A stretch of 58,540 nucleotides of DNA from Verrucomicrobiota bacterium (GCA_037131875.1 JBAXQF010000001.1:1-58540), one strand, 5' to 3'; numbered from the stretch's first letter, positions 6,902-58,540 are shown. A program made the numbers and translations. Notes: generated by a model not told the origin, from the letters alone.

Positions 6902-6912
6902 GGAGTGATATT

Positions 6913-7929: not shown

Positions 7930-7980
7930 GTCGCCTCCTTTGAAGCACGAACCGGGTGGCAAACGAAGAAAAAACAAATC

Positions 7981-8046: not shown

Positions 8047-8073
8047 AACTTTCTTTAATCCTGATTTGCTGAG

Positions 8074-8376: not shown

Positions 8377-8408
8377 GGGAGAAGCGTGCCGCTAAAGCAA
8401 AGAGAAAC

Positions 8409-8456: not shown

Positions 8457-8462
8457 TATTTG

Positions 8463-8528: not shown

Positions 8529-8541
8529 ACGCTTTTTGTGG

Positions 8542-9510: not shown

Positions 9511-9530
9511 GGAAGGAGGTGGCAGAAGGT

Positions 9531-9668
9531 TTCGCGCAAAGGAACGCAAAGGACGCAAAGAGGGAGAGAGTGGAGGATTTTGAGAATCCCCTAAAAAAGG
9601 GGGCGCTGCTTTTTGCAGTCTGTTCTCATACCATTCTTCTTTGCGTCCTTTGCGTTTCTTTGCGCGAG
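9531..9668. repeat. CGCAAAG-type inverted-repeat element (138 bp)
   Basis: The left arm ttcgcgcaaaggaacgcaaaggacgcaaagag is inverted at 9636-9668. The element fills the gap between two genes. Confidence 0.8.
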
Positions 9669-9669
9669 T

Positions 9670-10158: not shown

Positions 10159-10160
10159 GA

Positions 10161-11324: not shown

Positions 11325-11447
11325 GCGTGGGCACTTACTAGAGCATTCGCGAGAGAATTTCCATTAAATCCGTGCAGACGGGCAAAGATGCCTTCGCCAA
11401 GAACGCGATTGATTTGCGGCACCCAGTGCCGATATGGTGCCCGGATT

Positions 11448-11774
11448 ATGAGCAAACCCGCCTGTCCGCAATGTGAGATGAACGATGTTTTGGAACACGC
11501 GGACCGCTGGGAATGTATGACCTGCGGTCACGAGTGGTCGCGCGAGCCGGAAGCAGCAGAAGCCCGCGTCGTCAAGGACGCCTACGGCACAGTGCTTGCC
11601 GACGGGGATTCGGTGACGCTGATCAAAGATTTGAAGTTGAAGGGCTCCTCCCAAGTCATCAAAGGCGGGACGAAGGCCAAAAGCATCCGGTTGGTGGACG
11701 GGGATCACGAAATCTCCTGCAAGATCGACGGAAGCGCCATTGGCCTCAAAGCGTGCTTCGTGAAGAAGGCGTAA
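11448..11774 (+). CDS. yjdM: Zinc-ribbon protein YjdM/PhnA
   Basis: CPQC...CMTC zinc ribbon, then GDSVTLIKDLKLKGSSQVIKGGTKAKSIRLVDGDHEI, typical of PhnA/YjdM. Confidence 0.85.
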   Translation: MSKPACPQCEMNDVLEHADRWECMTCGHEWSREPEAAEARVVKDAYGTVLADGDSVTLIKDLKLKGSSQVIKGGTKAKSIRLVDGDHEISCKIDGSAIGLKACFVKKA

Positions 11775-42525: not shown

Positions 42526-44823
42526 CTAGGGATGAGCCGAGAGCGGCAGGCGCAGGTTGGGGAGGTCTTTCAGGGTGAAGGTCAGCACAACGCCGACATC
42601 GGCTACATTCTTGCCGGTGAGGCTGTTGTAATTTTCCTTCATGGTGAAGCCCAGCGATGCAATCCAGCTCGAGAGATCGCGGTGGAGTGCATAGTTCTGT
42701 GATTGAAGGGTGCTGTCAGAAAATTCGTATTGATCGCTGAAACTGACGGCCCAGTTGTCGTTGACCCGATAATAGGCGCCAAACACCAGGTTGTTGCTAT
42801 TGGCGAAGAAAACATTGTTCTCAAGATAACGATGGCCGACGGTGAAGCTGAGGTCCTCGTTGGCCAGAAAATGGAGATCGGTATTGAGCTGGGTGAAGCC
42901 GCTGCTCGTCAGCGGGATCTGGCTATCCATGCGTAAAGAGACCCAGGAGAGCGGCGCATAGATGAGTTGGTTGCAGAGATTGGAAAACGCTCCCTCAGAG
43001 GGGAGGCCTGGGTAGCTGGGGGCTTCCAGATTCGCGTTCAAAAACGTGTTCATCGTCACCAGGTTGTAGGTCGTGTCGTCGCGCCGGGTCTGCAGGGTGT
43101 TGCGAACGCCCAAACGCCAGATGGTCCAGTTAGGAATCGCATCCAAGGTGGTGAACTGCGGGAAGCTGATGGGGGGAAGCTCTGTGGTGGGCGTGAGTCG
43201 ATCGAATTGCAGGATGCTGTTGGGATTGTCTCCAGTTCTCACGAAGGAGAGATCGGTATAGGGTTGCCCCACATGGCGCAGTCCGTCGAGGCCAAGGGAG
43301 CGGGACTGCATTTCCTCCCATTCGCGCGAGAATTTGAAGGAGGACTCGATGCCTGCATTCAACACGGGACGGAAGACTGCGCCGCTGGACTTGTGCTGGA
43401 GGAGCGTCTCCACGTTTTGATTCAGATCCAGCCCGTTGGTTTGCAGGATATTAAAAGCGCTCTCTGCACCAGCCGAATAGTAGGTGCCCCTCAAGCCGAC
43501 GCGCGGAATCACCGAAAGCCAGCCGTCATAGGTTTGCGGCAGAGAAAGCTGGTGAAAGGTGTCGAAGCGGAAGGCATCGTAGTTTTCAAGCAGGGCACTG
43601 GTGGCGACAGGGTGCAGCGCATCCGTGTTTGAGAGCGTGCCGAAGGTGCGAGCAAGGCGCCCTGCGCTGGTTTCGCTTTCGTAGAAGACGGGGGAGTCCG
43701 CGCAGAGCGGCGCGTTAAAAAGGGGCTGCCGGGTGACGTCCAAAGCGGCTTCGGGCAGCCGCTCGGTGGTATCCAGAAAGCCGTTGCCTTGGAAGCGCAC
43801 AATCCCCGTGGCGGTGTAGCCTTCGTTCCATTTGGTCAGCGAGACCACGTTGTCAGGCTGCGGATTATTGCGGTATTCTGAGGGATAAAAATCGCGCAGA
43901 AACCGGTAATCACTCAGCTTGTTGAGGTCGGCATTCGCGTAAATCTCCTCTGTAAGGTACGTCCGGCTTTGGAAGGAAAGGCGGTAACGGCTGGAGGTGA
44001 CGGGAGCAATGACCTGGGCGGTGTTGTTGGTGTTGCTGCTGGTGTCTTCGGCGTAATAGCTCCGGAAGTGAGCCCAGCTTTTATTTTCGGGGCCAAACGT
44101 ACTCTTGGTATCGAACCCGACGGCAACGCCGCGCTTGGAGCGCAGATCCAGATCCAGCATGCCGTGGATGTTATCGGTCAGGGGAACGCCATAACGGTTG
44201 AGCACGTAGGCTCCCCAATCGCTGTTGTAGCCGGGGGTAAAGTTGAAGCCGGATTCCTCTTTGAGCGACTGGTAGATATACGGGAACCAAAAGACAGGCG
44301 TTTCCCCCACATACATCGAGACGTTGGTGAGGGTGATGTAGTCGTTGGGGTGAATGCGAATGTTGCGGGCCTGGAAATGGTAGTCCGGCTTGCTGGAATC
44401 GCTGGTGGTCGCAATCGCGTTTTTCGCCTCGTAGCCGGTTCCATCGGTCAAGGAGTTGACGGTCTCTCCCTTGGTGAAAAAGGGAGTCATGCTGGAGCGG
44501 AAATTCGAGGAGCGCAGCAATTTCGTTTCAAGGTTGTAAAGGGCGCGATCCCCCTCCACCAATCTCCCGTCCCGGTAGAGCCGCACGTTGCCGATGGCGA
44601 GCACATCCCGGGTCTCGGGGTTGTATTGTACGTAATCCGCGTAAATGGAGGTGCTGCCGTAATGGATGATGACGTTGTTTTCCGCCACCGCCACGCCGCC
44701 AACAAAGCGCGTTTCGCCATCCGCGGTGATTTCGATGGGGATATCCCCAAAGCTTCCAAATTGCGCCCGTGCGCAGGCAGCGCTCAGGAGCAGTAGGGCG
44801 AGAAGCAGGAAGCGGTTCTTCAT
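42526..44823 (-). CDS. lptD: LPS-assembly outer membrane protein LptD (OstA family)
   Basis: Signal peptide, OstA-like N-domain (ADYVQYNPETRDVLAIGNVRLY) and a large aromatic-rich beta-barrel region. Confidence 0.8.
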   Translation of the reverse strand: MKNRFLLLALLLLSAACARAQFGSFGDIPIEITADGETRFVGGVAVAENNVIIHYGSTSIYADYVQYNPETRDVLAIGNVRLYRDGRLVEGDRALYNLETKLLRSSNFRSSMTPFFTKGETVNSLTDGTGYEAKNAIATTSDSSKPDYHFQARNIRIHPNDYITLTNVSMYVGETPVFWFPYIYQSLKEESGFNFTPGYNSDWGAYVLNRYGVPLTDNIHGMLDLDLRSKRGVAVGFDTKSTFGPENKSWAHFRSYYAEDTSSNTNNTAQVIAPVTSSRYRLSFQSRTYLTEEIYANADLNKLSDYRFLRDFYPSEYRNNPQPDNVVSLTKWNEGYTATGIVRFQGNGFLDTTERLPEAALDVTRQPLFNAPLCADSPVFYESETSAGRLARTFGTLSNTDALHPVATSALLENYDAFRFDTFHQLSLPQTYDGWLSVIPRVGLRGTYYSAGAESAFNILQTNGLDLNQNVETLLQHKSSGAVFRPVLNAGIESSFKFSREWEEMQSRSLGLDGLRHVGQPYTDLSFVRTGDNPNSILQFDRLTPTTELPPISFPQFTTLDAIPNWTIWRLGVRNTLQTRRDDTTYNLVTMNTFLNANLEAPSYPGLPSEGAFSNLCNQLIYAPLSWVSLRMDSQIPLTSSGFTQLNTDLHFLANEDLSFTVGHRYLENNVFFANSNNLVFGAYYRVNDNWAVSFSDQYEFSDSTLQSQNYALHRDLSSWIASLGFTMKENYNSLTGKNVADVGVVLTFTLKDLPNLRLPLSAHP

Positions 44824-44903
44824 TGGCAGGGCATGACCCTAGCCAAGGGGGCTTGGGGTTGCCAAGAACAAATCAGGTTTTCACTGAGGTCACAGAGTGG
44901 TTT

Positions 44904-46010
44904 TTACCCTTTACGGTGCACCCAGACGCTGTTGACCAGCCCCAGCCCGAAGAAAATCACAAACACGAACGACCCGCTGTAGCTGATGAGCGGGAGGGGA
45001 ACGCCGGTGACGGGCATTAGAGCGATGTTCATGCCGATGTTCTGGAACGTGTGGGCAAAGAGCAGCGCGATGACCCCCACGCAGAGCAGCAGCCCCAGGA
45101 GGTCGGCCGCTCGCGCCGCCACATAAAAACAGGCGGCCAGGAGCAGGGCGAAGCCGCAAACAAGCGCCGTGCCGCCGACAAACCCCCATTGCTCGCCGAC
45201 GGCGGAGAAAATGTAATCGTTGGGCACGGTGGTGCGGGGCACGTAGCCAAGCTCCACCTGGCTGTCTTTGGCCAGGAACCCTTTGCCGCCCCAGCCCCCG
45301 GAACCAACGGCGATGAGGCACTGGTTGATTGCCCACGCCGCACCCTGGGTGTCGATTTCGGGGTCGATGAACGCGACAATGCGCGACTGCTGGTACGGCT
45401 TGAGCTTGAAATTGTAGGTGAGCGGCATGGCCGTGGCGGCCAGCAGTGCCACGACAATCAGGTAGCGCAACGGCAACCGCGCCAGGAAGAGCATCGAGAA
45501 AGCCACCGGAATCCAGACAAGACATTCCCCCAGATCGGGTTGGATCAAAATAAGGAGCGCCGGAGCCCCCGAAAGAACTCCGCAGGCGAGCAGCTTGCGC
45601 ACGGGGTGAAGCCGGGGAAACTGCGTCAAAAACACCGCCATGATGAGGATGCCCGAGACCACGGCAAGTTGGGCGGGCTGAAAGAGCAGGGGGCCAAGCT
45701 TCAGCCAGCAGCGCGCGCCATCCTTTATCACCCCCATGACCAGCGTGAGGACAAGAAACACCATCGAGAGGACATACATCGGCAGCGCCCCCCAGCGAAT
45801 CCATCGGTAGTGGACCATGCTGGTCACCAGGAAAACCACCGTGCTGATGCCGACCCACGCCGCTTGCTTGCGCCACATGGTGTAGTAAGCCGGGCTCTCA
45901 CGCATGTACGTGCAGCTATAGATGGCCACAACGCCAAAAACAGCCAGCGCGAGCATCGCCCCAAAGAGGATCCAGTTCATCCCCAGAAATTTTCTCAGCC
46001 ACGGTGTCAT
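44904..46010 (-). CDS. rodA: FtsW/RodA/SpoVE family peptidoglycan glycosyltransferase
   Basis: About 10 TM helices, IQPDLGE, PLPLISYSGS. Confidence 0.85.
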   Translation of the reverse strand: MTPWLRKFLGMNWILFGAMLALAVFGVVAIYSCTYMRESPAYYTMWRKQAAWVGISTVVFLVTSMVHYRWIRWGALPMYVLSMVFLVLTLVMGVIKDGARCWLKLGPLLFQPAQLAVVSGILIMAVFLTQFPRLHPVRKLLACGVLSGAPALLILIQPDLGECLVWIPVAFSMLFLARLPLRYLIVVALLAATAMPLTYNFKLKPYQQSRIVAFIDPEIDTQGAAWAINQCLIAVGSGGWGGKGFLAKDSQVELGYVPRTTVPNDYIFSAVGEQWGFVGGTALVCGFALLLAACFYVAARAADLLGLLLCVGVIALLFAHTFQNIGMNIALMPVTGVPLPLISYSGSFVFVIFFGLGLVNSVWVHRKG

Positions 46011-46086
46011 AATCCCAACCGTGAGTAGAATCGTTTCCTACAGGCTTGCCGAACGGTTCGGGAACGGCAATGTTTAGGTTTTCGCC

Positions 46087-47790
46087 ATGCATCTTTCGCC
46101 TGATCAACCTCTCGCCGGCATCCTCGCCCCCCTCTTTGCCCTTCGCTCGGAAAACGATCTCGGGATCGGAGACACCGAGTCGCTCCGCGAATTCGCAGAC
46201 TGGGCGCTCGAAAACGGCTTCCGGCTTGTGCAACTGCTGCCCATCAACGAAACCGGCAACGACCACTCTCCCTACAACGCCATCTCCTCCGTGGCCATTG
46301 ACCCGTGCACGCTGGCAATCTCCCCCGAAGCGATCCCCGATCTGACCGAGGAGGCCTATGAAGCCGCGCTCGCCGGGGTCTCGCTCAAGTCCCTGCGCAC
46401 CGGGCCGGTAAAATACCGCGTGGTGAAGCCGCTCAAGCGCCGGTTGCTGGAGCAGGCGTTTGAGGGGTTCATGGAGACCCACTGGAAAAACAAGACGGCC
46501 CGTTGCCGCCAGTTTCGCGCGTGGGTGAAAGAGCAGGCGGCCTGGATCGAAGGCTACGCGCTGTTCCGGGCGTTGATGGATGAAAACGGCGGCTCGGAGA
46601 TGTGGGACACCTGGCCCGAGCCGCAACAAACGCTCGAAAGCGCACTCGCGTGGCTCACCCTCCAGAAAGCCGCGGTGCGTCGCGCTCTGGAGTGGAAGAT
46701 GCGCTATTTCCAATACGTCCAGTGGATCGCCTTCGCGCAATGGGGGGCGCTCAAGGCCTACTGCAACGGCAAAGGCGTCGCGCTCATGGGGGACGTGCCC
46801 ATCGGCGTCAGCTACTACAGCAGCGACGTCTTTTGTTGCCCGGAGATTTTCAACCTGCGCTGGTCGGGAGGCGCACCGCCGGAGAAAGTTTTCAAGAGCG
46901 ATCCCTTCACCGAAAAATGGGGCCAAAACTGGGGCGTCCCGCTCTACCGCTGGGACGTGCTGCGGGAAACCAACTTCGCCTGGTGGCGGCAGCGCGTGCG
47001 CATGGTGCGCGAGATCTTCCACCTCTTCCGCATCGACCACGTGCTCGGGTTTTACCGCATGTATGGCTTCCCGTGGCGGCCCGGGCGCAACGCCGAGTTT
47101 CTCCCGCTCTCGGAAGACGCGGCGCGCGCCTGCACCGGGGGCGAACTGCCGCATTTCACCCCGCGCGATGATTCCTCACACGAAAACCGCGAAGCCAACC
47201 GGCGCGACGGCGAGGAATACCTGCGGGCGCTGCTGGAGGAAGTGGGCGAGCACCGCTTGATCGGCGAAGACCTCGGCGTGGTGCCCGACTACGTTCGCCC
47301 CAGCCTCACCTCGCTCGGCATCGCCGGATTCAAAATCCCGCAATGGGAGCGCCACCCGAACTGGCACCTCGTGCGCGGCAGCGACTACCAGCGGCTTTCC
47401 ATCGCCACCTACGCCACGCACGATCATCTTCCCATCGCCGCTTTTTGGGAACAGATGCGCGCCGCCGCGGAGTCCGGCGACGGGCATCAACGCTGGGAAC
47501 TGGAGCAGCTTTGCGGGTTCGCAGGGTTTGGCCTGGACAGCCCGAGACCGATGACGGACGCCATTCATGAAGCCCTGCTCGCGGGCCTCTTCCAGAGCAA
47601 CGCCTGGATGGCCATTGTCATGCTCACGGACGTTTTTGGCGACACCACCCGCTTCAACGTCCCCGGAGCCGTGGCGGATTCCAACTGGAGTGAACGCATG
47701 GCGCGCACCCCGGCCCAATGGCGCAAAGACAAAGCGCGCGCCGCGAAGATGAGCCGGATCGCCGCGCTCCTCAAGGCGAGCGGGCGGTAA
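46087..47790 (+). CDS. malQ: 4-alpha-glucanotransferase (GH77)
   Basis: GDVPIGV, RIDHVLGF, IGEDLGVVP and ATHD. Confidence 0.9.
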   Translation: MHLSPDQPLAGILAPLFALRSENDLGIGDTESLREFADWALENGFRLVQLLPINETGNDHSPYNAISSVAIDPCTLAISPEAIPDLTEEAYEAALAGVSLKSLRTGPVKYRVVKPLKRRLLEQAFEGFMETHWKNKTARCRQFRAWVKEQAAWIEGYALFRALMDENGGSEMWDTWPEPQQTLESALAWLTLQKAAVRRALEWKMRYFQYVQWIAFAQWGALKAYCNGKGVALMGDVPIGVSYYSSDVFCCPEIFNLRWSGGAPPEKVFKSDPFTEKWGQNWGVPLYRWDVLRETNFAWWRQRVRMVREIFHLFRIDHVLGFYRMYGFPWRPGRNAEFLPLSEDAARACTGGELPHFTPRDDSSHENREANRRDGEEYLRALLEEVGEHRLIGEDLGVVPDYVRPSLTSLGIAGFKIPQWERHPNWHLVRGSDYQRLSIATYATHDHLPIAAFWEQMRAAAESGDGHQRWELEQLCGFAGFGLDSPRPMTDAIHEALLAGLFQSNAWMAIVMLTDVFGDTTRFNVPGAVADSNWSERMARTPAQWRKDKARAAKMSRIAALLKASGR

Positions 47791-48160: not shown

Positions 48161-50218
48161 TCAGCGCGCCCTTTTGCTGGCAAAACGCACGAGCGCCTCT
48201 TTCATCGCCGTGGCGTGCACCGGCTTGCTGAGAAAATCATCCATGCCCGCGCCCAGGCATAACTCGCGGATGGAATCGCTCACATGCGCCGTCATGGCCA
48301 TGATGTAGGCCGGTTTGCGGGATTGAGCGGCCTCATATTCCCGAATCCGCCGCGTGGTTTCGCAGCCGTCCCATCCGGGCATCTCGCGATCCATCAGAAT
48401 GAGGTCGAATGCTGTTTTCTGGACGGCCTTGAGCGCGTTTTCCCCATCGGCTGCCACCGCCGCAGAGTAGCCGAGCTTGCGCATGAGCGCCGAGGCGATG
48501 AGCAGGTTCACCTGGTTGTCTTCCACGAGCAGAACCTTCAAACCCAGGGGCAACGCAGTCGCGGGTGCAGCCTGCTTGGGCAGTGGCGCGCGGCGAGGGG
48601 CTTTGTTCAGCGGCGTCGCGATGCATTCCATCGCTTCGCATTGCCTGAGCGGGATGGTCATTTGCGCGTCAATCCCTGTTTCCAAGAGGGATGCCGGTTC
48701 CTCGCCCGGGTTTTCTGGCGCAAGCAGAATCACCCGGATCTGAGCGAGGGCGGGGTCGCCCTTGATTTCCTGAGCCAAGGCTGCCGCCTCTTCTTTGGGG
48801 AGATGGAGAACGGCACAGTCAAAGCGAACCGCGCCTGCGTCGCGCAGCATGGGGAGTGCAAGTGCGGGCGCCTCCACTCCGGCGGTGTGGAAATGGAACG
48901 CGCGCATTTGCTGCTCAATGAGGTGGCGCAGGGCGGGGGTCTTTGCCACCACAAGCACGCGGCACTCTTCCAGGGAGGCCGGTTCTTGCGCGACATTCTG
49001 TTTCAGCAGCGGAACGGTGCAGCGGAAGGCAGAGCCTTTGTCCAGGGCGCTTTCCAAACCGATGTGCCCGCCCATCAACTCCACCAACTCCCGGCAGATG
49101 GCCAGGCCCAGGCCGGAACCCCCGTATTTGCGGGAGGTTGATTCATCCGCCTGGCTGAAAGGCTGGAAGAGGTGCTGCTGCGCCTCCGTGGGGATGCCGA
49201 CGCCGGTGTCCTGGACTTCCAGGCAGAGCATGGCCCGTGTGGCGTCTTCGCTCAGGAGACTGGCGCGCACCACGACATGACCTTGCGGGGTGAATTTGAT
49301 GGCGTTGCTCACCAGGTTCATGATGACCTGGCGCAGACGCAGGGGATCGCCCCGCAGGAGGGTCGGCGTCCGTGGCGCAATGATGCCCGCAAGATAAAGC
49401 CCTTTGGAGTTGGCGCTGCCCGCCACGATCTTCAAGACGCTTTCAATGACCTCCCGCAGGTCAAAATCAATGCACTCCAAAGTCAGCTTGCGGGCTTCCA
49501 TTTTGGAGAAGTCGAGGATGTCGTTCACCAGGGCGACAAGCGATTCCGAGCAACCGCGAATGGTGTTTACATAATCGCGCTGCTGATCCGTCAAGCTGGT
49601 TTCCAGGAGCAAACCGGACATGCCGATCACCCCGTTCATCGGCGTGCGCAGTTCGTGGCTCATGCTGGCCAGGAAGTTGCTCTTGGCTTGGGCGGCTCTT
49701 TCAAGCTGCTGGTTGGCGCCGACGAGCGCGGTGTTGCTCGCAACCAATGCCTGCTGGCTTTGGCGCAACGCTTCAAACGCGTCGTCGCGCTGGATGCGGT
49801 GCCAGCTTGCCATGGAGTGGTAGCGAATGCGCGCAAGGATCTCAAGGCGATCCGGCAGCTTCACCATGTAATCATTGGCTCCGGCTGCGAAGAGCGTGCT
49901 CTTGGTTTCCGCCTCCTCTTTGGTGGAGAGGATGACGATAGGCGTGTGCTCGGTCTCCGGGTTGGAGCGAAAGTCGCGCAGCAGTGTCAACCCGTCAACT
50001 TGGGGCATCACCAGATCGAGCAGAATCACCGTCGGCTTCACGCGGTTGGCCATGGAGATGGCCTCCAGCGGGTTGGCGCAGTAGTGGAAATCCACGTCCG
50101 GCTCGCCCGCCACAGCCTGTTGCATGGCGGCGGCGACCAGCGCCTGGTCGTCCACCAAGAGAACCAGTGCAGGGCAGCGTTCCTGGCCATCCTTCCAATA
50201 CTCAGTCATTTGTTCCAT
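48161..50218 (-). CDS. Hybrid histidine kinase: WspR-like REC + stalk, HisKA, HATPase_c, degenerate REC, REC
   Basis: N-terminal receiver ([16 protein letters not shown]...ARIRYHS), H-box [31 protein letters not shown]. The middle receiver lacks acidic pocket residues (VVAKT, AVLHLP). The C-terminal receiver has [13 protein letters not shown]. Confidence 0.9.
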
Positions 50219-50906
50219 GGTCAGTCCAGTCTTTCAACATGCTTGCATAACAATCAGGGCAGAGGCCGTGGGAAAAGGTCACATCGGTGTGCTCAGTGAG
50301 GTAGGTGTCGAGCAGGTGCCAGTAATTTTGATCATCGCGGACTTTCTTGCAGCTACAGCAGATGGGGAGCAGCCCCTGCAATTGTTTGACTTCGTCGAGC
50401 GCCTTTTTCAGGCCTTCGTTGAGCAGGCGCAGTTCGGTGTTTGTGCGCACCAGTTGCTGCTGGCTTTCGCGCAAGGCAACGAAGGCTTCCTCGCGCTGGA
50501 GCCGGTTTACGTGCGCCCGGGTGTGGTAGCGGATGCGGGCGCGCAGTTCGATCATATCCGGGAGTTTCACCAGATAATCATTGGCTCCAAGGGCGAAGGC
50601 GTCGCTCTTCGTCTGAGCTTCCTCCTCTGCGGAAAGCACGACGATGGGCGCCTCGGCGGTGACAGCGTTCTCGCGGAAGAGCTTCAACAGCGTGAGCCCG
50701 CTGATCTGGGGCATCACCAGATCGAGAAGGATGACCGTTGGCCTGAGCGTGTTGGCCAGTGCGATGGCCTCATGGGGATTGGGACAAAAATGAAGGTCAA
50801 TATCGCTCTGTCCATTCAGGGCGCGCGTGACGGCGTCGCCCACAAAGGCCTGGTCGTCAATCAAGAGAACCAACGCATGGTAGGTGTCTGGGAGTTCGTG
50901 ATCCAT
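50202..50906 (-). CDS. Response regulator: WspR-like REC + coiled-coil stalk + C-terminal Cys/His-rich module (no GGDEF)
   Basis: Receiver with [12 protein letters not shown] and [16 protein letters not shown], stalk [34 protein letters not shown], then [43 protein letters not shown]. The start at MDHELPD avoids overlap with cheB. Confidence 0.8.
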
Positions 50907-50917
50907 TTGCCAGGTCT

Positions 50918-51952
50918 TCAGGAGGTTTTGGAAGATTTCGGGTGAGTGCAACATTTGAGAAGGGCGGCGGCAATCCCGCCAAGAGATAAAATTTCAGTCG
51001 CGGCTCCGAGTTCCGCCGCCGCTTTGGGCATTCCATACACGGCACACCCTTCCTTGCTTTGGGTGATGGTGTGAAAGCCTGCATTGCGCAAGGTTTTGAG
51101 GCCCCTGGCTCCGTCGCGTCCCATGCCGGTAAGCAGAATCCCCACCACTTCGCCCGGCCAATGCCGCGCGACGCTTTCAAAAAAGACATCCACGGAAGGC
51201 CAGTAGAAGGATTCCTTCGGTTCGCTCGTGTATTTCAAGCGCCGTGGATTTGCCAAAATCAGGTGTTTGCTGCTCACCGCCATCAACACTTCTCCGGGCC
51301 GGGGGGTGTCCCCGTCGCAGATCCCGCGCATCGGCAGGGAACACTGCTGCTTCAGCCATTCCACCAGGGACGGCGCAAACTGCTCATCCACATGCTGGAC
51401 GATGATGATGGGCGAGGGGAAGTCTTTGGGAAGCTGTTGCAGGATTTCCGCCAGCGCACTGGGGCCTCCTGCGGATGCGCCGATGACCACCAAGGGAGGC
51501 GCTTCCTGCTGAGGGGAAGCGGTGGACGATGCTTGTCTGCAAAGGCATTCCCGAACCCCCTCAAGCATCCCGCTCAAGGTGTCGATCTTGGCAAGAAGCG
51601 GTGCGCTGACTTTGTGAAGGTCGCCCACTCCCAGCGCCGGGGTGTCCACCGCGTCCAGGGCGCCGTTCCCCATGGCCTGGAAAACCATCTCCGCGTTTTC
51701 TTCCACGCTGCAAGTCACGACAAGGATGGCACACGGACATTGCAGCATGATCTCGCGGGTTGTCAGCACGCCATCCATCTTCGGCATGATCAGATCCATC
51801 AAAATCAAATCCGGCGTGTCCTTCAAACACAGCGCCAACGCCTCGCGCCCATTGCTGGCGATCCATGCGACCTCGTGTGTGCCGGGCAGTGATACAGCCC
51901 GCCGCAAGGCTTCTGCTGCCACTGGTAAATCGTTGACGATAGCAATGCGCAT
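50918..51952 (-). CDS. cheB: Chemotaxis response regulator protein-glutamate methylesterase (WspF position)
   Basis: REC (LILMDLIMPKMDG) plus the esterase motifs GASAGGP, QHVDEQF and TGMGRDG. Confidence 0.9.
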   Translation of the reverse strand: MRIAIVNDLPVAAEALRRAVSLPGTHEVAWIASNGREALALCLKDTPDLILMDLIMPKMDGVLTTREIMLQCPCAILVVTCSVEENAEMVFQAMGNGALDAVDTPALGVGDLHKVSAPLLAKIDTLSGMLEGVRECLCRQASSTASPQQEAPPLVVIGASAGGPSALAEILQQLPKDFPSPIIIVQHVDEQFAPSLVEWLKQQCSLPMRGICDGDTPRPGEVLMAVSSKHLILANPRRLKYTSEPKESFYWPSVDVFFESVARHWPGEVVGILLTGMGRDGARGLKTLRNAGFHTITQSKEGCAVYGMPKAAAELGAATEILSLGGIAAALLKCCTHPKSSKTS

Positions 51953-52025: not shown

Positions 52026-54284
52026 CTATTCCAAAGCTTCCCCAATCAAATCCGTCACCGCGTTGAGCAGCGTTTCGTCATGGAAGCTGCCTTTGGTGAG
52101 ATAGTAGTCCGCTCCGGCCTCCAGCCCCCGGTTGCGGTCTTCGGGCCGGTCTTTGTAGGAGACAATCATCACGGGAAGCTCCTTGAGGCGCGGATCGTTC
52201 TTGATGAGGCGCACCAATTCAATGCCGTCCAGACGCGGCATGTCGATGTCGGTGACGACCAGATCGAACGGTTGCGTGCGCACCGCGTTCCACCCGTCCA
52301 TGCCGTCGATGGAGACCTCCACTTCGTAGCCGGCATTGCTGATGAGCTTGCGCTCCAGTTCGCGCACGGTCAGGGAATCGTCCACCACCAACACCCGCTT
52401 GCGGCGGCGGTCTGCATGCACCGCTCCGGCGCGCTGCACCCGGTCAAGTTGCCCGTGGGAAATCAGCAATTCCACCGAGCGCATCACATCATCCACGTCA
52501 AGGATCAGCACCGGGGAACCGTCGGGCATGAGGGCTCCGGCGTTGATGTCCTTGATCTTTCCAAGCCGCGGATCCAGCGGTTGAACCACCAGTTGCCGTT
52601 CGCCCAAAAAGCGATCCACCACCACGCCGAAGCGCTTGGCGCGATCCCCCAGGATCACCACCGAGACTTGATCTGCGCTGGATGTTTGATTTTTGCCGAA
52701 GATCTGCGCCGCCGAGACCAATCCAACCCGCTGGCCTTCAAAGGGGGCATGCTCCCGGCCCTCCAGCGTTTCGATGTCGGTGCGCGCCACGTGCAGGGTG
52801 CGCGTCAGCCGTGCAAGCGGGATGGCATAAGGTTCTCCGGCTACCTCCACCAACAAAAACCGCATGACGGAAAGCGTCAGCGGAAGCTGGAGTTGGAACC
52901 GCGTTCCGTTGCCGGGCTGGGTGGTCAGGCGCACGCTGCCACCCAGGGCTTTGACGGTGTTCTGGACGACATCAAGGCCGACGCCGCGCCCGGAGATTTC
53001 CGTCACTTCCTCGCGCATGGAGAAGCCCGGCAGGAAGAGGAAATCCAGGAGTTCCTCTTCGCTCAATGTTCTTGCCACATCCGCCGTGGTCAGTTTTTTG
53101 GAAACCACCGCCGCGCGCAGGGCTTCAAGCAAAACGCCCCGGCCGTCGTCTTCGATGCTGACCATGAGCAGCCCGGCCACATGGCGCGCTTCCAGTCGCA
53201 ACATTCCTTCGCGGGGTTTTCCGGCGCGCAGGCGTTCCTCCGGCGCTTCGAGCCCGTGATCCAGCGCGTTGCGCAAGAGATGGCCGAGCGGCGCTTCCAG
53301 CCGTTCCAGCACATCGCGATCCACGGGAGTTGTTTCCCCGGAAATTTGCAGCTTCACTTCCTTGCCAAGTTGGCGGGCAAGATCGCGGGCAAGCCGCTGG
53401 AACCCTTGCACTCCGTCGGCGAAGGGGCGCATCCGGCTCGCGAGAACTTCCCGGTAAAGCCGGTGGGAAAGGCTGGCCGAGCGGCGCGTATAAAGCTCCA
53501 GTTCCTCATGGCGCGCGCCCAGATTCTGTACGCAAGCCGCAGCCTGCTGCTGGGCATTGGTCAACAGGGCGGAGGTTTTTTCGTCGAGGCTTTTCCCGCC
53601 AAGCGACTCCCGCAAGGCTTCCATTGTCTGGGAAAGTTTCGTCTGCTGACGCTTGAGCCGCAGCAGCGATTCCGCATACGGAGAAAGCCAGCGCGATTCC
53701 ACCAACGCCTCTCCCGCAAGCCCCAAAAGGCGGTTCAAATTCGTTGCGGCCACCCGCAGCACCCGGTCGTCGGACTTTGCCGCAGCCGGCGCCCCGGCGC
53801 TCTTCATTTCTTCAGGCTTCGCAGCGCTTTCGGGTGGGGGTGAAGGTTGGGGAAATTCGGGCTGCTTCGGCGCATTCCCACTCGTGATTGCTGTGACGGC
53901 GCAAACCATCTGTTCGATCTCCGGGGCGTTCTCATTTTTCCAGACGCCGATCTCCGCTTCCGGTGTTTGCGCAATGCGGCTGAAGAGATCGACGCTGCGC
54001 AGGAGAACATCCACCGCGCCCGCGTGCAAGACGATGGCGCCTTTCTGTGCCGCCACAAAGCAATCCTCCATGGCGTGGGCAACCTGCACTGCGGCGTGGA
54101 GACCCACGATGCGCGCCGCGCCCTTGAGCGAGTGGGCGGCCCGCATCAACTCCTCCAGCAGGACAGCTTCGGTGGGATCGCGCTCCAAGGCGAGAAGCCC
54201 CTGGGTGAGGACGGCGCTCTGGCTTTCGGCCTCCTTGTGGAAAAGGTCGAGGAGCGAAAACTGGTTGTAGTCGTTCTGGCTCAT
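52026..54284 (-). CDS. cheA: Hybrid CheA: Hpt, dimerisation, HATPase, CheW-like, C-terminal REC (WspE architecture)
   Basis: Hpt HSLKGAARIVG, N-box HLLRNALDHGLE, GRGVGLDVV, CheW-like domain, receiver LVVTDIDMPRLDG. Confidence 0.92.
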   Translation of the reverse strand: MSQNDYNQFSLLDLFHKEAESQSAVLTQGLLALERDPTEAVLLEELMRAAHSLKGAARIVGLHAAVQVAHAMEDCFVAAQKGAIVLHAGAVDVLLRSVDLFSRIAQTPEAEIGVWKNENAPEIEQMVCAVTAITSGNAPKQPEFPQPSPPPESAAKPEEMKSAGAPAAAKSDDRVLRVAATNLNRLLGLAGEALVESRWLSPYAESLLRLKRQQTKLSQTMEALRESLGGKSLDEKTSALLTNAQQQAAACVQNLGARHEELELYTRRSASLSHRLYREVLASRMRPFADGVQGFQRLARDLARQLGKEVKLQISGETTPVDRDVLERLEAPLGHLLRNALDHGLEAPEERLRAGKPREGMLRLEARHVAGLLMVSIEDDGRGVLLEALRAAVVSKKLTTADVARTLSEEELLDFLFLPGFSMREEVTEISGRGVGLDVVQNTVKALGGSVRLTTQPGNGTRFQLQLPLTLSVMRFLLVEVAGEPYAIPLARLTRTLHVARTDIETLEGREHAPFEGQRVGLVSAAQIFGKNQTSSADQVSVVILGDRAKRFGVVVDRFLGERQLVVQPLDPRLGKIKDINAGALMPDGSPVLILDVDDVMRSVELLISHGQLDRVQRAGAVHADRRRKRVLVVDDSLTVRELERKLISNAGYEVEVSIDGMDGWNAVRTQPFDLVVTDIDMPRLDGIELVRLIKNDPRLKELPVMIVSYKDRPEDRNRGLEAGADYYLTKGSFHDETLLNAVTDLIGEALE

Positions 54285-54287: not shown

Positions 54288-54992
54288 TTAGGCGAGGTGG
54301 CGGCTGAGGGCGTAGAAGAGCAGGGATTCGTCCAGCACGCCGACGTTCCGCCCTTCCCAGGAAAGCAGGCCGGTGGTGTAGCGCGCGGCGGATTGTGCAA
54401 CGGTGGAGGGAACCGGCTTCAAATCGTTCGGATGATAACGCACGCCCACGTGCACTTCGTGGACGGAGAACACCACCCGCTCCGCGTTTTGCCCCACGAC
54501 CAGGAGCCGCTCATAAACGCTCCGCCCTTTTTGCATCGCGTTTTGCGCCGGGGTTGCCGCCGTTTCAATGCCCAGCAAATGGGCCAGGGAAACGCAAATC
54601 AAAAGCTCGCCGCGCACCATGGCAAGCCCTCGCACCATCGCGCCCTGCTGGTGCGGCAGAGTGTGGATGGGGCGCTGGTCCACCACCTCCTCAAAAACCT
54701 CGGTGGGCAATGCCAGCCATTCCCCGCCGATGCGGAAAATCACAATGGAGCGCGTGCCGGCCAGTTTTGCCTCTGGCGGGCGGGCCATGCGCTCCGTCCA
54801 GAAGTCGAGATAACCCTCGGGAGACTTGCGGTCAAGCAGGCTCGCCGCCGCCGCGCGAAAGACCTCGCAGTTCAGGCAGCGGATGTGCTTCTTGAGTTCG
54901 GGACACGTCTTGTCGCCGAAATTCCCTATCTGTTTCCAGCAGGCGGTGAACCCAATATCCGAGGTGGCAGAAGATGAAACGGTTTCGCTCAT
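54288..54992 (-). CDS. cheW: CheW-like coupling protein with N-terminal four-Cys motif (WspD position)
   Basis: CWKQIGNFGDKTCPELKKHIRCLNCEVF, then a CheW fold (IVIFRIGGEWLALP...). ATGA overlap with the cheR stop. Confidence 0.85.
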   Translation of the reverse strand: MSETVSSSATSDIGFTACWKQIGNFGDKTCPELKKHIRCLNCEVFRAAAASLLDRKSPEGYLDFWTERMARPPEAKLAGTRSIVIFRIGGEWLALPTEVFEEVVDQRPIHTLPHQQGAMVRGLAMVRGELLICVSLAHLLGIETAATPAQNAMQKGRSVYERLLVVGQNAERVVFSVHEVHVGVRYHPNDLKPVPSTVAQSAARYTTGLLSWEGRNVGVLDESLLFYALSRHLA

Positions 54993-56281
54993 GATGCTTT
55001 CGCTTTGGCTTTCGTCTGTGCCCGCCGGGCGCGCTCCTCAAGCTGCCGCGCCGCCTTGGCGTTGCCGCCTTTTTTTGTCAGCAGGGAGAGTTGGAAGAGG
55101 GCCTCGTGGTGATCCGGCTCCATGTAGAGAGTCTTCCGGTAATACGCTTCCGCCTGGGCGGGCTGGTTGGCTGCGTCCTCAATCAGCCCGAGCAAATAAT
55201 AGACGCGGCTGGAGGGCCCATGCGCCTTCAGGCAGGTTTCGCATTCGGCGCGCGCGGCATCGAAGCGGCCCGCGTCGGCCCATTTCTCGGCCTGGGCGAG
55301 CAGGGTTTCTGCCGTCGCGGGTGCCGTCGCGGGTGGGTTCGCTTTCACCCGGGGAGCAGGGATTACCGGGCGGGGAGGCGGGACGGCTGGTTTCACCGGC
55401 AAGGCAACCGCCCGGGGCGGAGCTATGGCGGCGGGCTTGGAAGCAGCCGCCTTGCGGGCCGTCGCGCCCGCCTTCTTCTTGCTTTTGCGGAAGGCGAACA
55501 CCATGGATTTTGGCAACGGCTCAAATCCAAACTCGCGGGAAATGCCTCCCTCCGCGTGGCCCAGGAACAGCAGCCCTTCTGGCGCAAGCATCCGGTCGAG
55601 CTTCGTCATGAGCCGCGCGCGGGAAGGCGCGTCAAAATAAATCATGAGGTTGCGGCAGAAAACGACATCCATTTCCCCTTCCTTGCGATCAAAGGAGGCG
55701 TCGAGCAGATTCGCCTGCCGGAACTGCACCTGGTTGCTGATCTGTTCATCCAGGCGCCAGCCGTCCCTGCACTTGTGAAAATGGATTTCGCGGAACTCGT
55801 TTTGCTGTCCGCGAAACGCATTGCGGTTGTAAACGGCTTGCCGCGCCTTGGCGAGCGCCTCTGCGCTGATGTCCACCGCCTCCACAGAAAAACGCTCGGG
55901 GGGCATCCCCGCATCCACAAGAGCCATGACGATGGAATACGGCTCCTCGCCCGTGGAACACGGCATGCTGATCACGCGCAGAACCTCGTAAGGGTGGGCT
56001 GGCAGCCATTCGTTCACGGCCCATTGGCCCAGTAATGCAAACGCCTCGCGATCCCGGAAAAACCAGGTTTCCGGCACCACAATCTCCTCAATGAGCGCGT
56101 GAAATTCCGTTTCCGAAGCGCCCAATAAGCCCGCGTATTCTGAAACAGTCTTGGTGCCCCGTTTTTTCATCCGGGTGCGGACAGCCAGCGTCACCATGGA
56201 GGGGCCGACAGAGCCGACATTCAGGCCGATTCCCCGCTGGAGAAGCGCCTCAATTTCCCTGGCTGGATCGGCCGCCGTCAT
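54989..56281 (-). CDS. cheR: CheR methyltransferase with Pro/Ala linker and C-terminal TPR (WspC architecture)
   Basis: ISMPCSTGEEPYSI, VFCRNLMIYFD, and a TPR-like C-terminus (YYLLGLIEDAANQPAQAEAYYRKTLYMEPDHHEALFQL). The start at 56281 gives an ATGA overlap with the upstream cheW. Confidence 0.85.
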   Translation of the reverse strand: MTAADPAREIEALLQRGIGLNVGSVGPSMVTLAVRTRMKKRGTKTVSEYAGLLGASETEFHALIEEIVVPETWFFRDREAFALLGQWAVNEWLPAHPYEVLRVISMPCSTGEEPYSIVMALVDAGMPPERFSVEAVDISAEALAKARQAVYNRNAFRGQQNEFREIHFHKCRDGWRLDEQISNQVQFRQANLLDASFDRKEGEMDVVFCRNLMIYFDAPSRARLMTKLDRMLAPEGLLFLGHAEGGISREFGFEPLPKSMVFAFRKSKKKAGATARKAAASKPAAIAPPRAVALPVKPAVPPPRPVIPAPRVKANPPATAPATAETLLAQAEKWADAGRFDAARAECETCLKAHGPSSRVYYLLGLIEDAANQPAQAEAYYRKTLYMEPDHHEALFQLSLLTKKGGNAKAARQLEERARRAQTKAKAKAS

Positions 56282-56742
56282 AATGCCTCCGCAGCTTGCC
56301 GCCACAAGGAGTTGCGCACTTCCGGTGTGAGCATCTGCCCGACATCCACCCGTTGCACAATCCCGCGTGCATCATGCACCACCGGCCCCAAATACGGAGC
56401 GCCTTCCGCCGCCACGCCGGGGTTTTGGAAATCTCCGTCCGCATACTGCGCGGTTTCCGTGGCCTTCTCCACCACCAGCCCAAGCAGCCGCTGCTCGCCA
56501 TCGGGACAAGGGTAGCGCACCAGCGCCAGCCGCGTGCTGAGACTGTCCTGCGCCGGTTGGCCAAGCGCCATGGCGCTCAAATCCACCACCGGCACCGGCT
56601 GCCCATGATAATTGAACACCCCGGCCACTCCCGCTGCCGCTTGGGGAATCCGCTTCAAGCGCACCATGGGCTCGACGGCGACAATCCCGCCCGCCTCAAG
56701 CGCGTAGCGGTCTTTGCCGATCTGGAAGAGAAGATAAACCAT
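56278..56742 (-). CDS. cheW: CheW coupling protein (WspB position)
   Basis: 154 aa CheW fold (YLLFQIGKDRYALEAGGIVAVEP...). Confidence 0.85.
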   Translation of the reverse strand: MVYLLFQIGKDRYALEAGGIVAVEPMVRLKRIPQAAAGVAGVFNYHGQPVPVVDLSAMALGQPAQDSLSTRLALVRYPCPDGEQRLLGLVVEKATETAQYADGDFQNPGVAAEGAPYLGPVVHDARGIVQRVDVGQMLTPEVRNSLWRQAAEAL

Positions 56743-56770: not shown

Positions 56771-58261
56771 CTAGTCTTTCGACTTCAGTTGGGATGCCGC
56801 CACCTGCAAGCCTTGAGCCGCCTGCATGAGTTGCTCAATGGCATCGCTATTTTGGCGCAGGGCCTGGGCGGATTGCTGCGCCGTGTCACCCAGTTGCGTG
56901 AGCGCCTCGCTGATCTGCCCCGCGGCGGTGGATTGCATCTGCATGCCCTCGTTGACCGACTCGAAGCGCGGCGACAACGCCTGCACCTGCTGGATGATCT
57001 GAACCAGTTGCGCCGTCACGCCGCAAACCTCCTCATTGCCGCGTCGGACTTCCTCGGCGAATTTATCCATCCCCATCACCCCGGCGGAGACGGCGGATTG
57101 CATCTCCTTGACCATCTGCTCGATATCGTAGGTCGCCACGGCGGTCTGGTCGGCCAGGCGGCGGATTTCCGTCGCCACCACCGCAAAGCCCTGTCCGTAT
57201 TCGCCCGCCTTTTCCGCCTCAATCGCCGCATTGAGCGAGAGCAGGTTGGTTTGGTCGGCGACTTTGTTGATCGTCGTGACCATGGTGTTGATGTTGGCCG
57301 TCTTCTCATTGAGAATCGCCAGCTTGCCGGAAATGCTCGCGGTCGCGCCCATGATCTGGCCCATGGTCGATTCCAGGCGCGAGAGGCTCGCCTGTCCGCC
57401 CGCGGCAATCTCGGCGGTTTGTTCGGAGACCCCGGCCACATCGCTCATGGTCTTGCCGAGTTCCTTGGTGGTCGCGGAAATCTCCTTGGCCGTGCTGCCG
57501 ATCTCCATCGAGGTGGAGGCCACTTCATTCGCGCTGGCCTGCTGCTCCTTGAGCGTGGCGGCCATTTCCGTGGCGCTGCCGTTGACCTGGATGAGCGCCA
57601 GCATGAGGTTCTTCAAGGCGGCTCCGAGCATCTGGATCACGAGAGCGGCGACGCCGATGCACAACAGCACGCTGATCACGCTACCTGCCATCACAAACGT
57701 GTTGGTGGTGCTCACAGCATCGGAAATATCACTCAAAGATTTAAACGCATCCGCTTTGTCATTCTGCTCCATTGCCTCGACGGCTTTGGCAAACTCTTCC
57801 ATGGCCGGCACGTCTTTGTTCTCATACAAAAGGAGAGCCTCTTTGTTCTTCCCTTGGTTGACTAAGTTGATAACTTCGTCCCGGACGGCAAGATACTCGG
57901 CGCGCCGTTGCTTGAGCGCTTCAAAAAGTTTTGCTTCTCCACCAGGCAATACCAGTTTTTCACGTTCTGCAATGAGCTCCGAATTCTCTTTTGAACTCTC
58001 CTTAATCATCTCCAACGCGCGCGTTCTGATCACGGACTCTTCGATTGCAATCGCCCGCAGCACAGCTTCGTCATTCTGCCGCGCATGTTGCAGAATCTGT
58101 CCGGTGAGATAGAGCCCCGGCACTTGATTTTCGTGCATGTCATCGGATATGACCTGGATGCCTTTCAGCCGGATCACGGAGTAACCGCAGATTGAGGCGG
58201 AGAGGAGGATGACAACGAAGAAGCCAACCGTTACGAGTCTTTGGACGGTCCAGTTTTTCAT
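56771..58261 (-). CDS. Methyl-accepting chemotaxis protein (WspA position) with four-helix-bundle-type periplasmic domain
   Basis: TM1, helical sensor region and TM2. Signalling hairpin LLSLNAAIEAEKAGEYGQGFAVVATEIRRLADQTAVAT. The start at MKNWTVQR is preferred. Confidence 0.9.
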   Translation of the reverse strand: MKNWTVQRLVTVGFFVVILLSASICGYSVIRLKGIQVISDDMHENQVPGLYLTGQILQHARQNDEAVLRAIAIEESVIRTRALEMIKESSKENSELIAEREKLVLPGGEAKLFEALKQRRAEYLAVRDEVINLVNQGKNKEALLLYENKDVPAMEEFAKAVEAMEQNDKADAFKSLSDISDAVSTTNTFVMAGSVISVLLCIGVAALVIQMLGAALKNLMLALIQVNGSATEMAATLKEQQASANEVASTSMEIGSTAKEISATTKELGKTMSDVAGVSEQTAEIAAGGQASLSRLESTMGQIMGATASISGKLAILNEKTANINTMVTTINKVADQTNLLSLNAAIEAEKAGEYGQGFAVVATEIRRLADQTAVATYDIEQMVKEMQSAVSAGVMGMDKFAEEVRRGNEEVCGVTAQLVQIIQQVQALSPRFESVNEGMQMQSTAAGQISEALTQLGDTAQQSAQALRQNSDAIEQLMQAAQGLQVAASQLKSKD

Positions 58262-58540
58262 AGGGAGAAATGAGGCTGCGGCCCCCGATGGATATGCCAA
58301 GGCAGCGACGCGTTGCTTTGACTGTGGGGGTTTCCCGGATGTTAAGAGTAGAGCATCAATTGGTCAACTGCGAAGAGTGGGAATTGCCTTGGAATGCGAG
58401 GTTTGTTCCCATCTGCGGCCAGTTAACGGGGGGGGGTAAAAGCCTTCTCATGCCGGGCTTTAGCCGGCATTCCGGGGTTTTGCCACCGGCTTCAGCCCTG
58501 ACATGTATACACATCGCGAAGCCGCCATCGTAGGGGAGGC

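Follow-up and report, generated by a model that had tools for sequence, protein, structure and literature searches.

A WspR-like receiver and stalk joined to a widespread Cys4 module in a Wsp-type chemosensory gene cluster of a Verrucomicrobiota bacterium

We analysed a stretch of 58,540 nucleotides (nt) from a Verrucomicrobiota bacterium (GCA_037131875.1 JBAXQF010000001.1:1-58540), referred to below as the window, in which a response regulator gene occupies positions 50202..50906 of the minus strand (stop codon, 50202-50204), within a gene cluster ordered like the wspABCDEFR operon. The encoded protein of 234 amino acids (aa) comprises a receiver (REC) domain, a coiled-coil stalk, a compact module with two CxxC pairs (hereafter the Cys4 module) and a short tail. 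Judged by the alignments presented below, it is a WspR scaffold in which the cyclase is swapped for the Cys4 module. An original prediction, made from the sequence alone, had delimited the regulator by positions that correspond exactly to an open reading frame (ORF), although it gave no strand, and translation of 50202-50906 yielded precisely the C-terminal peptide quoted there. A longer ORF (250 aa, 16 extra residues) could start from an upstream ATG at 50954; we take the Met at 50906 as the start on alignment grounds, because orthologues of 234-240 aa align from that Met; over a range of 234-260 aa, orthologues are collinear to the C-terminus.

The REC domain (residues ~13-126; 50529..50870, minus strand) was identified by Pfam Response_reg (PF00072; E 4.3e-21, 75.6 bits versus a cut-off of 30.2) and by its match to WspR. 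It carries the phospho-acceptor Asp62 (codon at 50721-50723, minus strand), and D62, the acidic pair D17 and D18, S92 and K114 are invariant across 29 orthologues; Y111 is also conserved. All attributes of the receiver class, namely a profile score above cut-off, phospho-acceptor Asp, acidic pair, Ser and Lys, are therefore present. Running on from REC alpha5, a helical stalk (residues ~127-177; 50376..50528, minus strand) was delimited by the AlphaFold2 helix, the WspR alignment and the heptad linker. It is followed by the Cys4 module (residues 178-219; 50250..50375, minus strand), which opens with a G-L-L-P helix breaker and continues as C183-x2-C186-x29-C216-x2-C219, and by a variable C-terminal tail (residues 220-234; 50205..50249, minus strand) that is kept only in close orthologues. 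A pattern scan of the window, translated in all six frames, found C..C-x29-C..C a single time and located the Cys core at 50250-50360 on the minus strand. In an AlphaFold2 model built from a 29-sequence alignment (mean confidence score, pLDDT, 83), the REC domain adopts the canonical fold and an unbroken helix spans residues 118-175 (pLDDT about 90), ~45 residues of which extend beyond alpha5. Pfam, AlphaFold2 and the translation thus agree with the architecture that had been proposed for the protein, i.e., a REC domain, a heptad-like stalk of about 45 residues and a compact Cys-rich end.

The link to WspR is supported by both sequence and predicted structure. More specifically, a phmmer search of the PDB returned WspR as the best match (3BRE, E 3.3e-54; 3I5A, E 8e-54), the next regulator reaching only 2.5e-13, and aligned residues 11-164 of the query to WspR 19-173, ending where the GGDEF domain of WspR begins. 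Likewise, Foldseek superposed the full-length model on WspR with a root-mean-square deviation (rmsd) of 1.0-1.2 Å and 59-60% identity over 150 columns. No match to GGDEF (PF00990) was obtained at E<=1, and the ~51-59 residues past the stalk are devoid of a GGDEF motif. As the defining GGDEF domain was looked for and is absent, the regulator should not be classed as a WspR. Pfam matched nothing in its last ~90 residues, and NCBIfam and PDB sequence searches gave no match for the tail.

The C-terminal region nevertheless defines a large family. The 69-residue tail alone retrieved homologues at E ~1e-22, and an exhaustive profile search of 1.84 billion representatives of 50% identity clusters, of the kind that the original prediction had proposed, collected 24,422 clusters at E<=1e-3, of which 20,004 reached E<=1e-10, a result well beyond chance. 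These clusters span more than 15 phyla, with carrier genomes from Acidobacteriota, Planctomycetota, Verrucomicrobiota, Lentisphaerota, Chloroflexota, Desulfobacterota, Nitrospirota, Rokubacteria, Calditrichota, Fibrobacterota, Hydrogenedentota, Bacteroidota, Spirochaetota and Pseudomonadota. The family consensus reads L-x-G-L-L-P-I-C-x-x-C-K-K-I-R-D-D-x-[GN]-Y-W-x-x-[VLI]-E-x-Y-[ILV]-x-x-H-[ST]-x-A-x-F-[ST]-H-G-[ILV]-C-P-x-C. Among 301 diverse copies, which were drawn from the top-scoring matches and hence give percentages biased towards the consensus, the four Cys (C1, C4, C34 and C37), Pro and Trp are invariant, further residues are highly conserved (K 95%, R 96%, D 92%, Y 91%, H of FSHG 87%), and the spacer between the CxxC pairs measures exactly 29 residues in 299. 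Beyond the last Cys there is a median of 21 residues, with no family-wide conservation. In the window protein, the conserved non-Cys positions of the module are K187, K188, R190, D192, W196, D200, Y202 and H213, D200 standing where the family consensus has Glu. The five Cys (C183, C184, C186, C216 and C219) and three His counted in the original prediction are all present in this protein; as a ligand set, however, that count does not carry over to the family, in which invariance is limited to four Cys. Where the window protein has the second Cys of its 'CC', the family shows Ser, Ala or Cys (Cys in 12%), and one of the His is 87% conserved (FSHG), one 75% and the third not at all. The likely ligand set, as far as conservation can tell, is thus the four Cys, possibly assisted by His.

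Past the stalk, AlphaFold2 predicts a beta-hairpin (181-183, 189), a helix (195-205), a short strand (212-214) and a last helix (217-232), with moderate confidence in the Cys module (pLDDT 61-85); modelling the tail alone gave the same topology (pLDDT 72). C183 and C186 fall in the predicted hairpin knuckle, C216 lies just before the last helix and C219 in its first turn, a placement that, in the model, fits the arrangement of a treble-clef zinc finger. The two CxxC half-sites supply the four ligands expected of a C4 zinc ribbon or treble clef. Given the invariant Cys4, the rigid spacing and the predicted knuckle/helix topology, the module would contain a structural metal site, most likely Zn(Cys)4. 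These modelled features suit C4 zinc fingers as a structural class, and the module belongs to no curated family.

A match to a characterised domain was sought in Pfam models up to 2025, NCBIfam of June 2026 and the PDB of 2026, and none emerged from the curated families or the fold libraries. Pfam scans of 75 diverse modules gave sub-threshold scores only, the best being DUF3039 (1.3e-3) and zf-C4pol (1.8e-3); Zn_ribbon_LapB appeared in 2/75 modules at E 0.38 and zf-C4_ClpX in 2/75 at E 0.055, both sub-threshold, whereas zf-HC2 and rubredoxin had no Pfam matches among the 75. A PDB profile search with the module reached at best E 0.037, against a 25-residue stretch of an unrelated membrane protein, and Foldseek with the tail model reached E 2.7 against the PDB and 0.57 against BFVD. 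The sub-threshold Foldseek and Pfam echoes included Fur, the TFIIE-alpha finger, XPA_N and primase zinc ribbons, and the only database echoes of the module are zinc-finger families, all below significance. DUF3039, zf-C4pol, the ClpX zinc-binding domain (ZBD) and E6 were rejected as family assignments, being generic zinc-ribbon scores below threshold. No description of the module was found in openly readable papers, subscription-only papers and InterPro lying outside that scope. The statement that the motif had no assigned function thus agrees with Pfam, NCBIfam, PDB, Foldseek searches of PDB and BFVD, and the open literature; the module appears to be undescribed in Pfam, NCBIfam, PDB and that literature, and an earlier description elsewhere is possible. 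Annotation pipelines call the module proteins just 'response regulator' or 'hypothetical'. We set aside as unsupported transfers the JGI names 'phosphoserine phosphatase RsbU/P' and 'uncharacterized protein YlaI', given to many 60-120-aa fragments consisting of coil plus module only; these are probably spurious KO/COG transfers.

The position and the partners of the module both support an output role. In 80 of 80 genome loci (module copies from named genomes; proteins of 157-1704 aa), the module stands at the extreme C-terminus. The partner Pfam domains among the 147 top profile matches are REC (44), MASE6 (21), PAS, GAF, HAMP, PocR and Reg_prop/Y_Y_Y, and HisKA, GGDEF, EAL and HTH are all missing from the top 25 partner families of these matches. 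Since the module is confined to the extreme C-terminus and its partners are limited to input domains, sequence evidence supports its being the output; the statement in the original prediction that the signature closes many signalling proteins in diverse phyla was accurate, the module following REC, PAS, GAF, HAMP, MASE6, PocR and Reg_prop inputs. Integral-membrane MASE6 fusions make up ~14% of the sampled proteins. The 37-residue module core has a median pI of 6.0 and carries a net negative charge in 74% of 518 copies; the window copy has a net charge of -3 and a pI of 5.2. About 40 cluster representatives (P0157-P0199, ~400-556 aa) are covalent tandems of the form (REC-stalk-Cys4)x2, natural fusions that fit a two-module working unit.

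Some unusual family members were also encountered. In rare cases a further domain follows the module: a PilZ-like domain (RxxxR ... DLSTGG) in P0227 (343 aa) and a winged-helix-like tail in P0300 (263 aa). P0036 (104 aa) resembles P0091 (249 aa) with an internal deletion that joins REC 'FHYC' to module 'HKVRND' at the common 'YC'; this deletion either occurred naturally or arose in assembly. Candidate stand-alone module genes were rejected: P0379 is the end of a gene for a membrane sensor, interrupted by a TAG in the same frame, and the others were fragments from metagenomes. At L086 (5686-6240; also in L087 and L088), an ORF with membrane helices and a coil-Cys4 ORF share one frame and are separated only by a TAG at 5929-5931. 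This arrangement is identical on 24 contigs, three NCBI assemblies included, and could represent a split gene, stop-codon readthrough or a fixed pseudogene.

Stalk length provided a further line of evidence. The distance from the Lys of REC beta5 to the first Cys takes four values, 41 (5 copies), 48 (68), 55 (2) and 69 residues (116, the window protein included), and equals 6 mod 7 in 191/191 copies, a statistic inflated by shared descent, as 115 of the 191 copies belong to one orthologue group and there are effectively four length classes. These four classes share one heptad phase. Over the 20 residues ahead of the module, a conserved a/d-type heptad pattern (L-16, A-13, L-12, V-9, L-6, G-4) ends in G-L-L-P. 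In addition, the same REC-stalk cassette carries three different outputs: GGDEF in WspR, HisKA in the gene adjoining the regulator, and Cys4 in the regulator itself. The GGDEF domain of WspR and HisKA outputs function only as correctly registered dimers. Because these two outputs of the cassette need registered dimers, the module would likewise be controlled by stalk register or dimerisation and act as a pair, and the sequence data support such coiled-coil control.

The regulator gene belongs to a cluster on the minus strand that, in order of transcription, begins with a WspA-like chemoreceptor (4HB_MCP plus MCPsignal; 56771..58300) and continues with a CheW/WspB-like coupling protein (56278..56742), a CheR-TPR/WspC-like methyltransferase (54989..56305), a CheW/WspD-like coupling protein (54288..54992), a CheA/WspE-like kinase with Hpt, HATPase, CheW and REC domains that is the presumed phosphodonor (52026..54284), and a CheB/WspF-like methylesterase (REC plus CheB_methylest; 50918..51952). 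All were assigned by Pfam, and the last also scored 444 bits with NF009206 versus a cut-off of 342. A WspH-like hybrid histidine kinase follows the regulator (48161..50218, minus strand, by Pfam), with a WspR-type REC, stalk, HisKA, HATPase, an intervening region and a C-terminal REC. The order MCP-CheW-CheR(TPR)-CheW-CheA/REC-CheB-regulator corresponds to wspA-B-C-D-E-F-R, then the hybrid kinase. CheR-TPR fusions mark ACF (alternative cellular function) pathways, whose regulators have varied outputs, and the published list of ACF outputs does not include the Cys4 module (PMC3447774). The original prediction had assigned the regulator to the place of a chemosensory output enzyme; the wspABCDEFR gene order and the homology of its REC-stalk to that of WspR bear this out. 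The longest CheR ORF overlaps the upstream CheW by 28 nt, and orthologues measure 433-435 aa versus 438 here, so that the true start is probably a few codons downstream; the CheR and second CheW (54288..54992) genes overlap by 4 nt, and that CheW and CheA are spaced by 3 nt. The whole cluster looks translationally coupled.

The kinase and the regulator are closely related over their N-terminal parts, with 60% identity in the REC-stalk (E 8e-59, 159 residues), and diverge only at the entry to the H-box versus the Cys module. Their genes overlap (regulator stop/kinase start) by 17 nt in the window and by 23 nt in L001, an orthologous locus (regulator 70% identical) with the same operon including the kinase and a PBP_like_2 gene after it. 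The Wsp-type (ACF-class) gene order recurs in L001 and in two more distant loci. In L090 (54%), the operon leads into two tandem paralogous REC-stalk-Cys4 genes (10001-11481) with no kinase. In L091 (~52%; 3306-10771 of a Chthoniobacteraceae metagenome-assembled genome, MAG), REC-stalk-Cys4 is the sole regulator after CheB, with no kinase downstream; a convergent SMC-like gene comes after this regulator. Two further orthologues are orphans outside such an operon. The Cys4 regulator can thus, on sequence evidence, be the sole output of a Wsp-like pathway, and its being the sole regulator in L091 argues for a genuine output rather than a mere accessory of the kinase.

Probing of 80 diverse module loci with the Che proteins of the window detected no CheA, CheB, CheR or CheW genes, which makes the chemosensory context particular to the orthologue group of the window, and as rare as had been supposed. 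All-versus-all clustering of ORFs within 5 kb of these loci, with Pfam on 70 adjacent same-strand genes, found two-component parts as the only recurring neighbours (REC in 18/70, kinase 9, Hpt 5, GGDEF 3). GC content is 0.606 in the cluster and 0.598 in the rest of the window, and because the two match there is no compositional sign of recent transfer. Beyond the 3' end of the cluster (42526-47790) lie housekeeping-looking genes, judged from ORF translations only: an LptD-like large outer-membrane protein (42526-44823, minus strand), a RodA/FtsW-like membrane protein (44904-46010, minus strand) and a 4-alpha-glucanotransferase-like protein (46087-47790, plus strand).

These data are best explained by a Wsp-like chemosensory pathway in which the regulator serves as output, either alone or as one of two. 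In the mechanism that we propose, the CheA/WspE-like kinase would phosphorylate Asp62, as operon synteny and WspR homology suggest, and phosphorylation would alter the coiled-coil packing of the stalks as in WspR, a step for which the fixed heptad phase of the linker speaks. The stalk would stop at the G-L-L-P break and give way to a metal-stabilised knuckle/helix fold, with Zn(Cys)4 the most likely site, and the paired modules of the dimer would be positioned or exposed so as to offer a partner, encoded elsewhere than nearby, a surface of invariant residues (K, K, R, D, W, E, Y, H). Output would then proceed via regulated protein-protein binding and not via second-messenger synthesis. Near-invariant residues of surface type across more than 15 phyla suggest a conserved macromolecular partner, and a target other than nucleic acid is weakly favoured, as the acidic core in most copies and the many membrane-anchored members weakly disfavour nucleic-acid binding. 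We consider this whole chain, from a Wsp-like pathway to a Zn-stabilised, non-enzymatic, protein-binding output controlled through the stalk, to be probable, if only just, and place much higher confidence in the anatomy (REC, WspR stalk and Cys4 module) by itself; a protein as the specific target of the module is proposed more tentatively. Several points weigh against the proposal. For the whole family, metal binding and the identity of the metal (Zn or Fe) are read from sequence and models; the protein-protein output is argued by exclusion and analogy; the K-K-x-R patch could still contact nucleic acid; and phosphotransfer from the CheA-like kinase is deduced from synteny only. To these we add the inflation of the heptad statistic noted above, the failure to find a conserved non-signalling neighbour in the 80 loci, and the single cases P0227 and P0300, which could point to different functions.

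Other explanations were weighed against the same data. As the regulator ends where the GGDEF domain of WspR would start, it might be what truncation or a frameshift has left of a longer regulator (for instance a decayed WspR), with the Cys tail as out-of-frame noise. The original prediction had named an alignment of orthologues as the means to decide this, and 28 orthologues (51-88% identity; the closest named homologues come from Verrucomicrobiota MAGs) are collinear to the C-terminus and keep both the length and the tail, with invariant Cys. Moreover, the tail by itself defines a family of more than 20,000 clusters, and no GGDEF-like sequence lies downstream in any frame, because the kinase gene begins 17 nt before the regulator stop; on this comparative evidence the remnant explanation is refuted, and we grant it practically no credence. 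The close kinship of the neighbouring genes suggests a different role, in which the regulator modulates the adjoining WspH-like kinase through stalk heterodimers or competition for CheA~P, with the module as a cap or dimer lock. The 60% identity of the two REC-stalks, a gene overlap that implies translational coupling and a 1:1 ratio, and the near equality of the distances from the beta5 Lys to the H-box His (68) and to the first Cys (69) would all suit such a role. The operons of L090 and L091 have no downstream kinase, however, orphan orthologues occur as well, and more than 20,000 other clusters pair the module with unrelated sensors, which makes its surface role a general one; we regard this explanation as improbable. 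It is more improbable still, we believe, that the module is minimally catalytic, or a binder of small ligands (for example nucleotide second messengers), and so keeps a link of the cyclic di-GMP (c-di-GMP) type. Replacement of GGDEF in a WspR scaffold, conserved Arg, Asp, Trp and Tyr typical of nucleotide-stacking sites, the natural PilZ-like fusion and the GGDEF genes adjoining 3/70 loci are in keeping with this idea, yet ~37 residues around a structural metal leave little space for a pocket, no similarity to known nucleotide-binding folds was found by Pfam, PDB profile or Foldseek searches, and the PilZ fusion is single.

Two further explanations concern what the metal site is for. A small zinc-finger domain that binds DNA or RNA, two fingers being set on a palindrome by the dimeric coil in the manner of bZIP proteins, would let a Wsp-like pathway directly control gene expression. 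This we judge unlikely, although it is the alternative that we take most seriously. It accords with a patch of conserved basic residues (K-K-[IV]-R) in the first knuckle, the frequency of nucleic-acid binding among C4 zinc ribbons and treble clefs, the weak echoes of Fur, the TFIIE-alpha finger, XPA_N and primase zinc ribbons, varied neighbourhoods that fit a regulator with local targets, and a dimeric stalk that suits a palindrome. It has to contend with the acidic core of 74% of copies, that of the window included, with the integral-membrane MASE6 fusions, with a member that adds a winged helix-turn-helix-like tail after the module, redundant if the module itself bound DNA, and with the lack of significant similarity to any DNA-binding zinc-finger family in Pfam and PDB profile searches. 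Unlikely to a slightly greater degree is a second sensor that changes stalk packing, either a thiol switch responsive to redox state or metal, which releases Zn as a disulfide forms (as in Hsp33 and RsrA), or an Fe or Fe-S site. The regulator would then mainly compete for the CheA-like kinase or drain phosphate from it in a regulated way. Here, two CxxC with a nearby, mostly conserved His (H-x2-C-x2-C) recall the H-x3-C-x2-C of ZAS proteins, the CPxC knuckle is also typical of rubredoxins, and a redox-switch role is possible for Zn(Cys)4 sites (PMC5061722). Such a sensor would nonetheless leave the PAS, GAF, HAMP, MASE6 and PocR fusions without any output, and L091 has the module protein as the sole regulator of a complete chemosensory operon. 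The invariant non-ligand residues (W 100%, with K, R and D nearly so) suggest a binding interface over a simple metal site, and the Pfam scans gave no zf-HC2 or rubredoxin, only the two marginal Zn_ribbon_LapB scores.

What is new here is a Wsp-type pathway and a WspR-type regulator with a new output. Output domains decide what a bacterial signalling pathway does, and the known ones (DNA-binding, kinase, cyclase/phosphodiesterase, methylesterase, PP2C and a few adaptors) are widely regarded as a nearly complete set. The broader proposal, that the module represents a major and hitherto undescribed class of output domains in bacterial signalling, by which changes of coiled-coil register coming from REC, PAS, GAF, HAMP and membrane sensors lead to binding of a conserved target, we put forward with some reserve, seeing slightly more reason to doubt than to accept it. 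If true, the module would be comparable in spread to established outputs (>20,000 clusters at 50% identity, >15 phyla), the window would add, beyond Proteobacteria, a third kind of Wsp output besides the cyclase and the kinase, and the module would gain a defined upstream pathway for study. The module forms the end of tens of thousands of sensor proteins from phyla that dominate in the environment (Acidobacteriota, Verrucomicrobiota, Planctomycetota, Desulfobacterota, Nitrospirota and others), and their downstream step is currently invisible. As the window combines an understood input (a Wsp-type array), a crystallised scaffold (the REC-stalk of WspR) and a one-for-one output swap, phospho-mimics, stalk mutants and WspR/Cys4 chimeras are directly designable.

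Among known systems, the closest counterpart is WspR (PA3702; Pseudomonas aeruginosa/P. syringae), the REC-stalk-GGDEF diguanylate cyclase that serves as the terminal output of Wsp. Its REC and stalk are homologous to those of the regulator, and in both systems the gene comes after that for CheB/WspF, in an operon of wspABCDEF order that includes CheR-TPR and CheA-REC. The coiled coil of WspR consists of residues 140-171; its parallel or antiparallel packing switches activity, and the output domain is hinged at residue 172, making the stalk an oligomeric switch (PMC2270323); by analogy, the regulator would presumably be phosphorylated likewise and have an equal stalk-based switch. One study reports that phosphorylation drives clustering of WspR (PMC3663191). 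Unlike WspR, the regulator has no GGDEF domain, GG(D/E)EF active site or RxxD I-site, so that it cannot synthesise c-di-GMP, and its stalk reaches the helix break ~11 residues later and leads into the 37-residue Cys4 core. The host also differs, being Verrucomicrobiota-like, whereas Wsp has been reported solely from beta- and gammaproteobacteria: a survey of 794 wsp clusters, all from these two groups, recorded only WspR or WspH as outputs and never both (PMC8552884). The window cluster departs from that survey in output type, co-occurrence and taxon, and Wsp-like systems are accordingly limited neither to beta-/gammaproteobacteria nor to WspR/WspH outputs. In Burkholderia cenocepacia, the place of WspR as the Wsp output is taken by WspH (WspHRR), a hybrid histidine kinase that carries a WspR-like REC; it sets a precedent for a WspR REC cassette on a non-cyclase output and for c-di-GMP-independent signalling (PMC8552884). 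The window kinase at 48161-50218 has that architecture; the Cys4 regulator, in contrast, has no kinase domains, and the two genes adjoin and overlap here, versus the exclusive use seen in the survey.

With respect to control, the regulator resembles the S-helix-coupled dimeric outputs (HisKA/DHp, GGDEF and nucleotidyl cyclases) in its heptad-quantised coiled coil with conserved last turns. Those outputs, however, are enzymes of 60-170 residues with known chemistry, whereas Cys4 is a 37-residue metal knuckle without a plausible active site. With respect to the metal site, the CxxC-x29-CxxC spacing is that of the papillomavirus E6/E7 zinc-finger signature and of the CM domain of EpsE, a type II secretion ATPase of the GspE/PilB family, whose site binds Zn experimentally and is needed for stability and activity (PMC5061722, PMC5744137). 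E6 and E7 use their tetracysteine domains for protein-protein interaction (PMC5061722, PMC5744137), and in both E6/E7 and EpsE the ligand pattern and the spacing are identical to those of the module. There is, however, no detectable homology to either: both are absent from the PDB profile matches at E<=10, Foldseek on the module places E6 at E 3-5 (probability <=0.08), and the inter-Cys residues are interchangeable in EpsE but highly conserved in the Cys4 module. We accordingly treat the shared spacing as an analogy and take it as convergence. Finally, the module is comparable to small C4 domains for partner binding, such as the N-terminal ZBD of ClpX, the C4 finger of DksA/TraR, the ZAS anti-sigma domains and the ribosomal protein bL36, which have four Cys (or Cys/His) ligands in ~40-60 residues and a treble-clef or ribbon-like topology, but differ from it in spacing and non-ligand residues. 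More specifically, the first half-site is similar to the bL36 knuckle PIC-x2-CK-x-IR in a match below significance that covers just 12 residues (E 0.14), and the ZAS motif H-x3-C-x2-C is not reproduced by the H-x2-C-x2-C of the module, which places the module outside ZAS.

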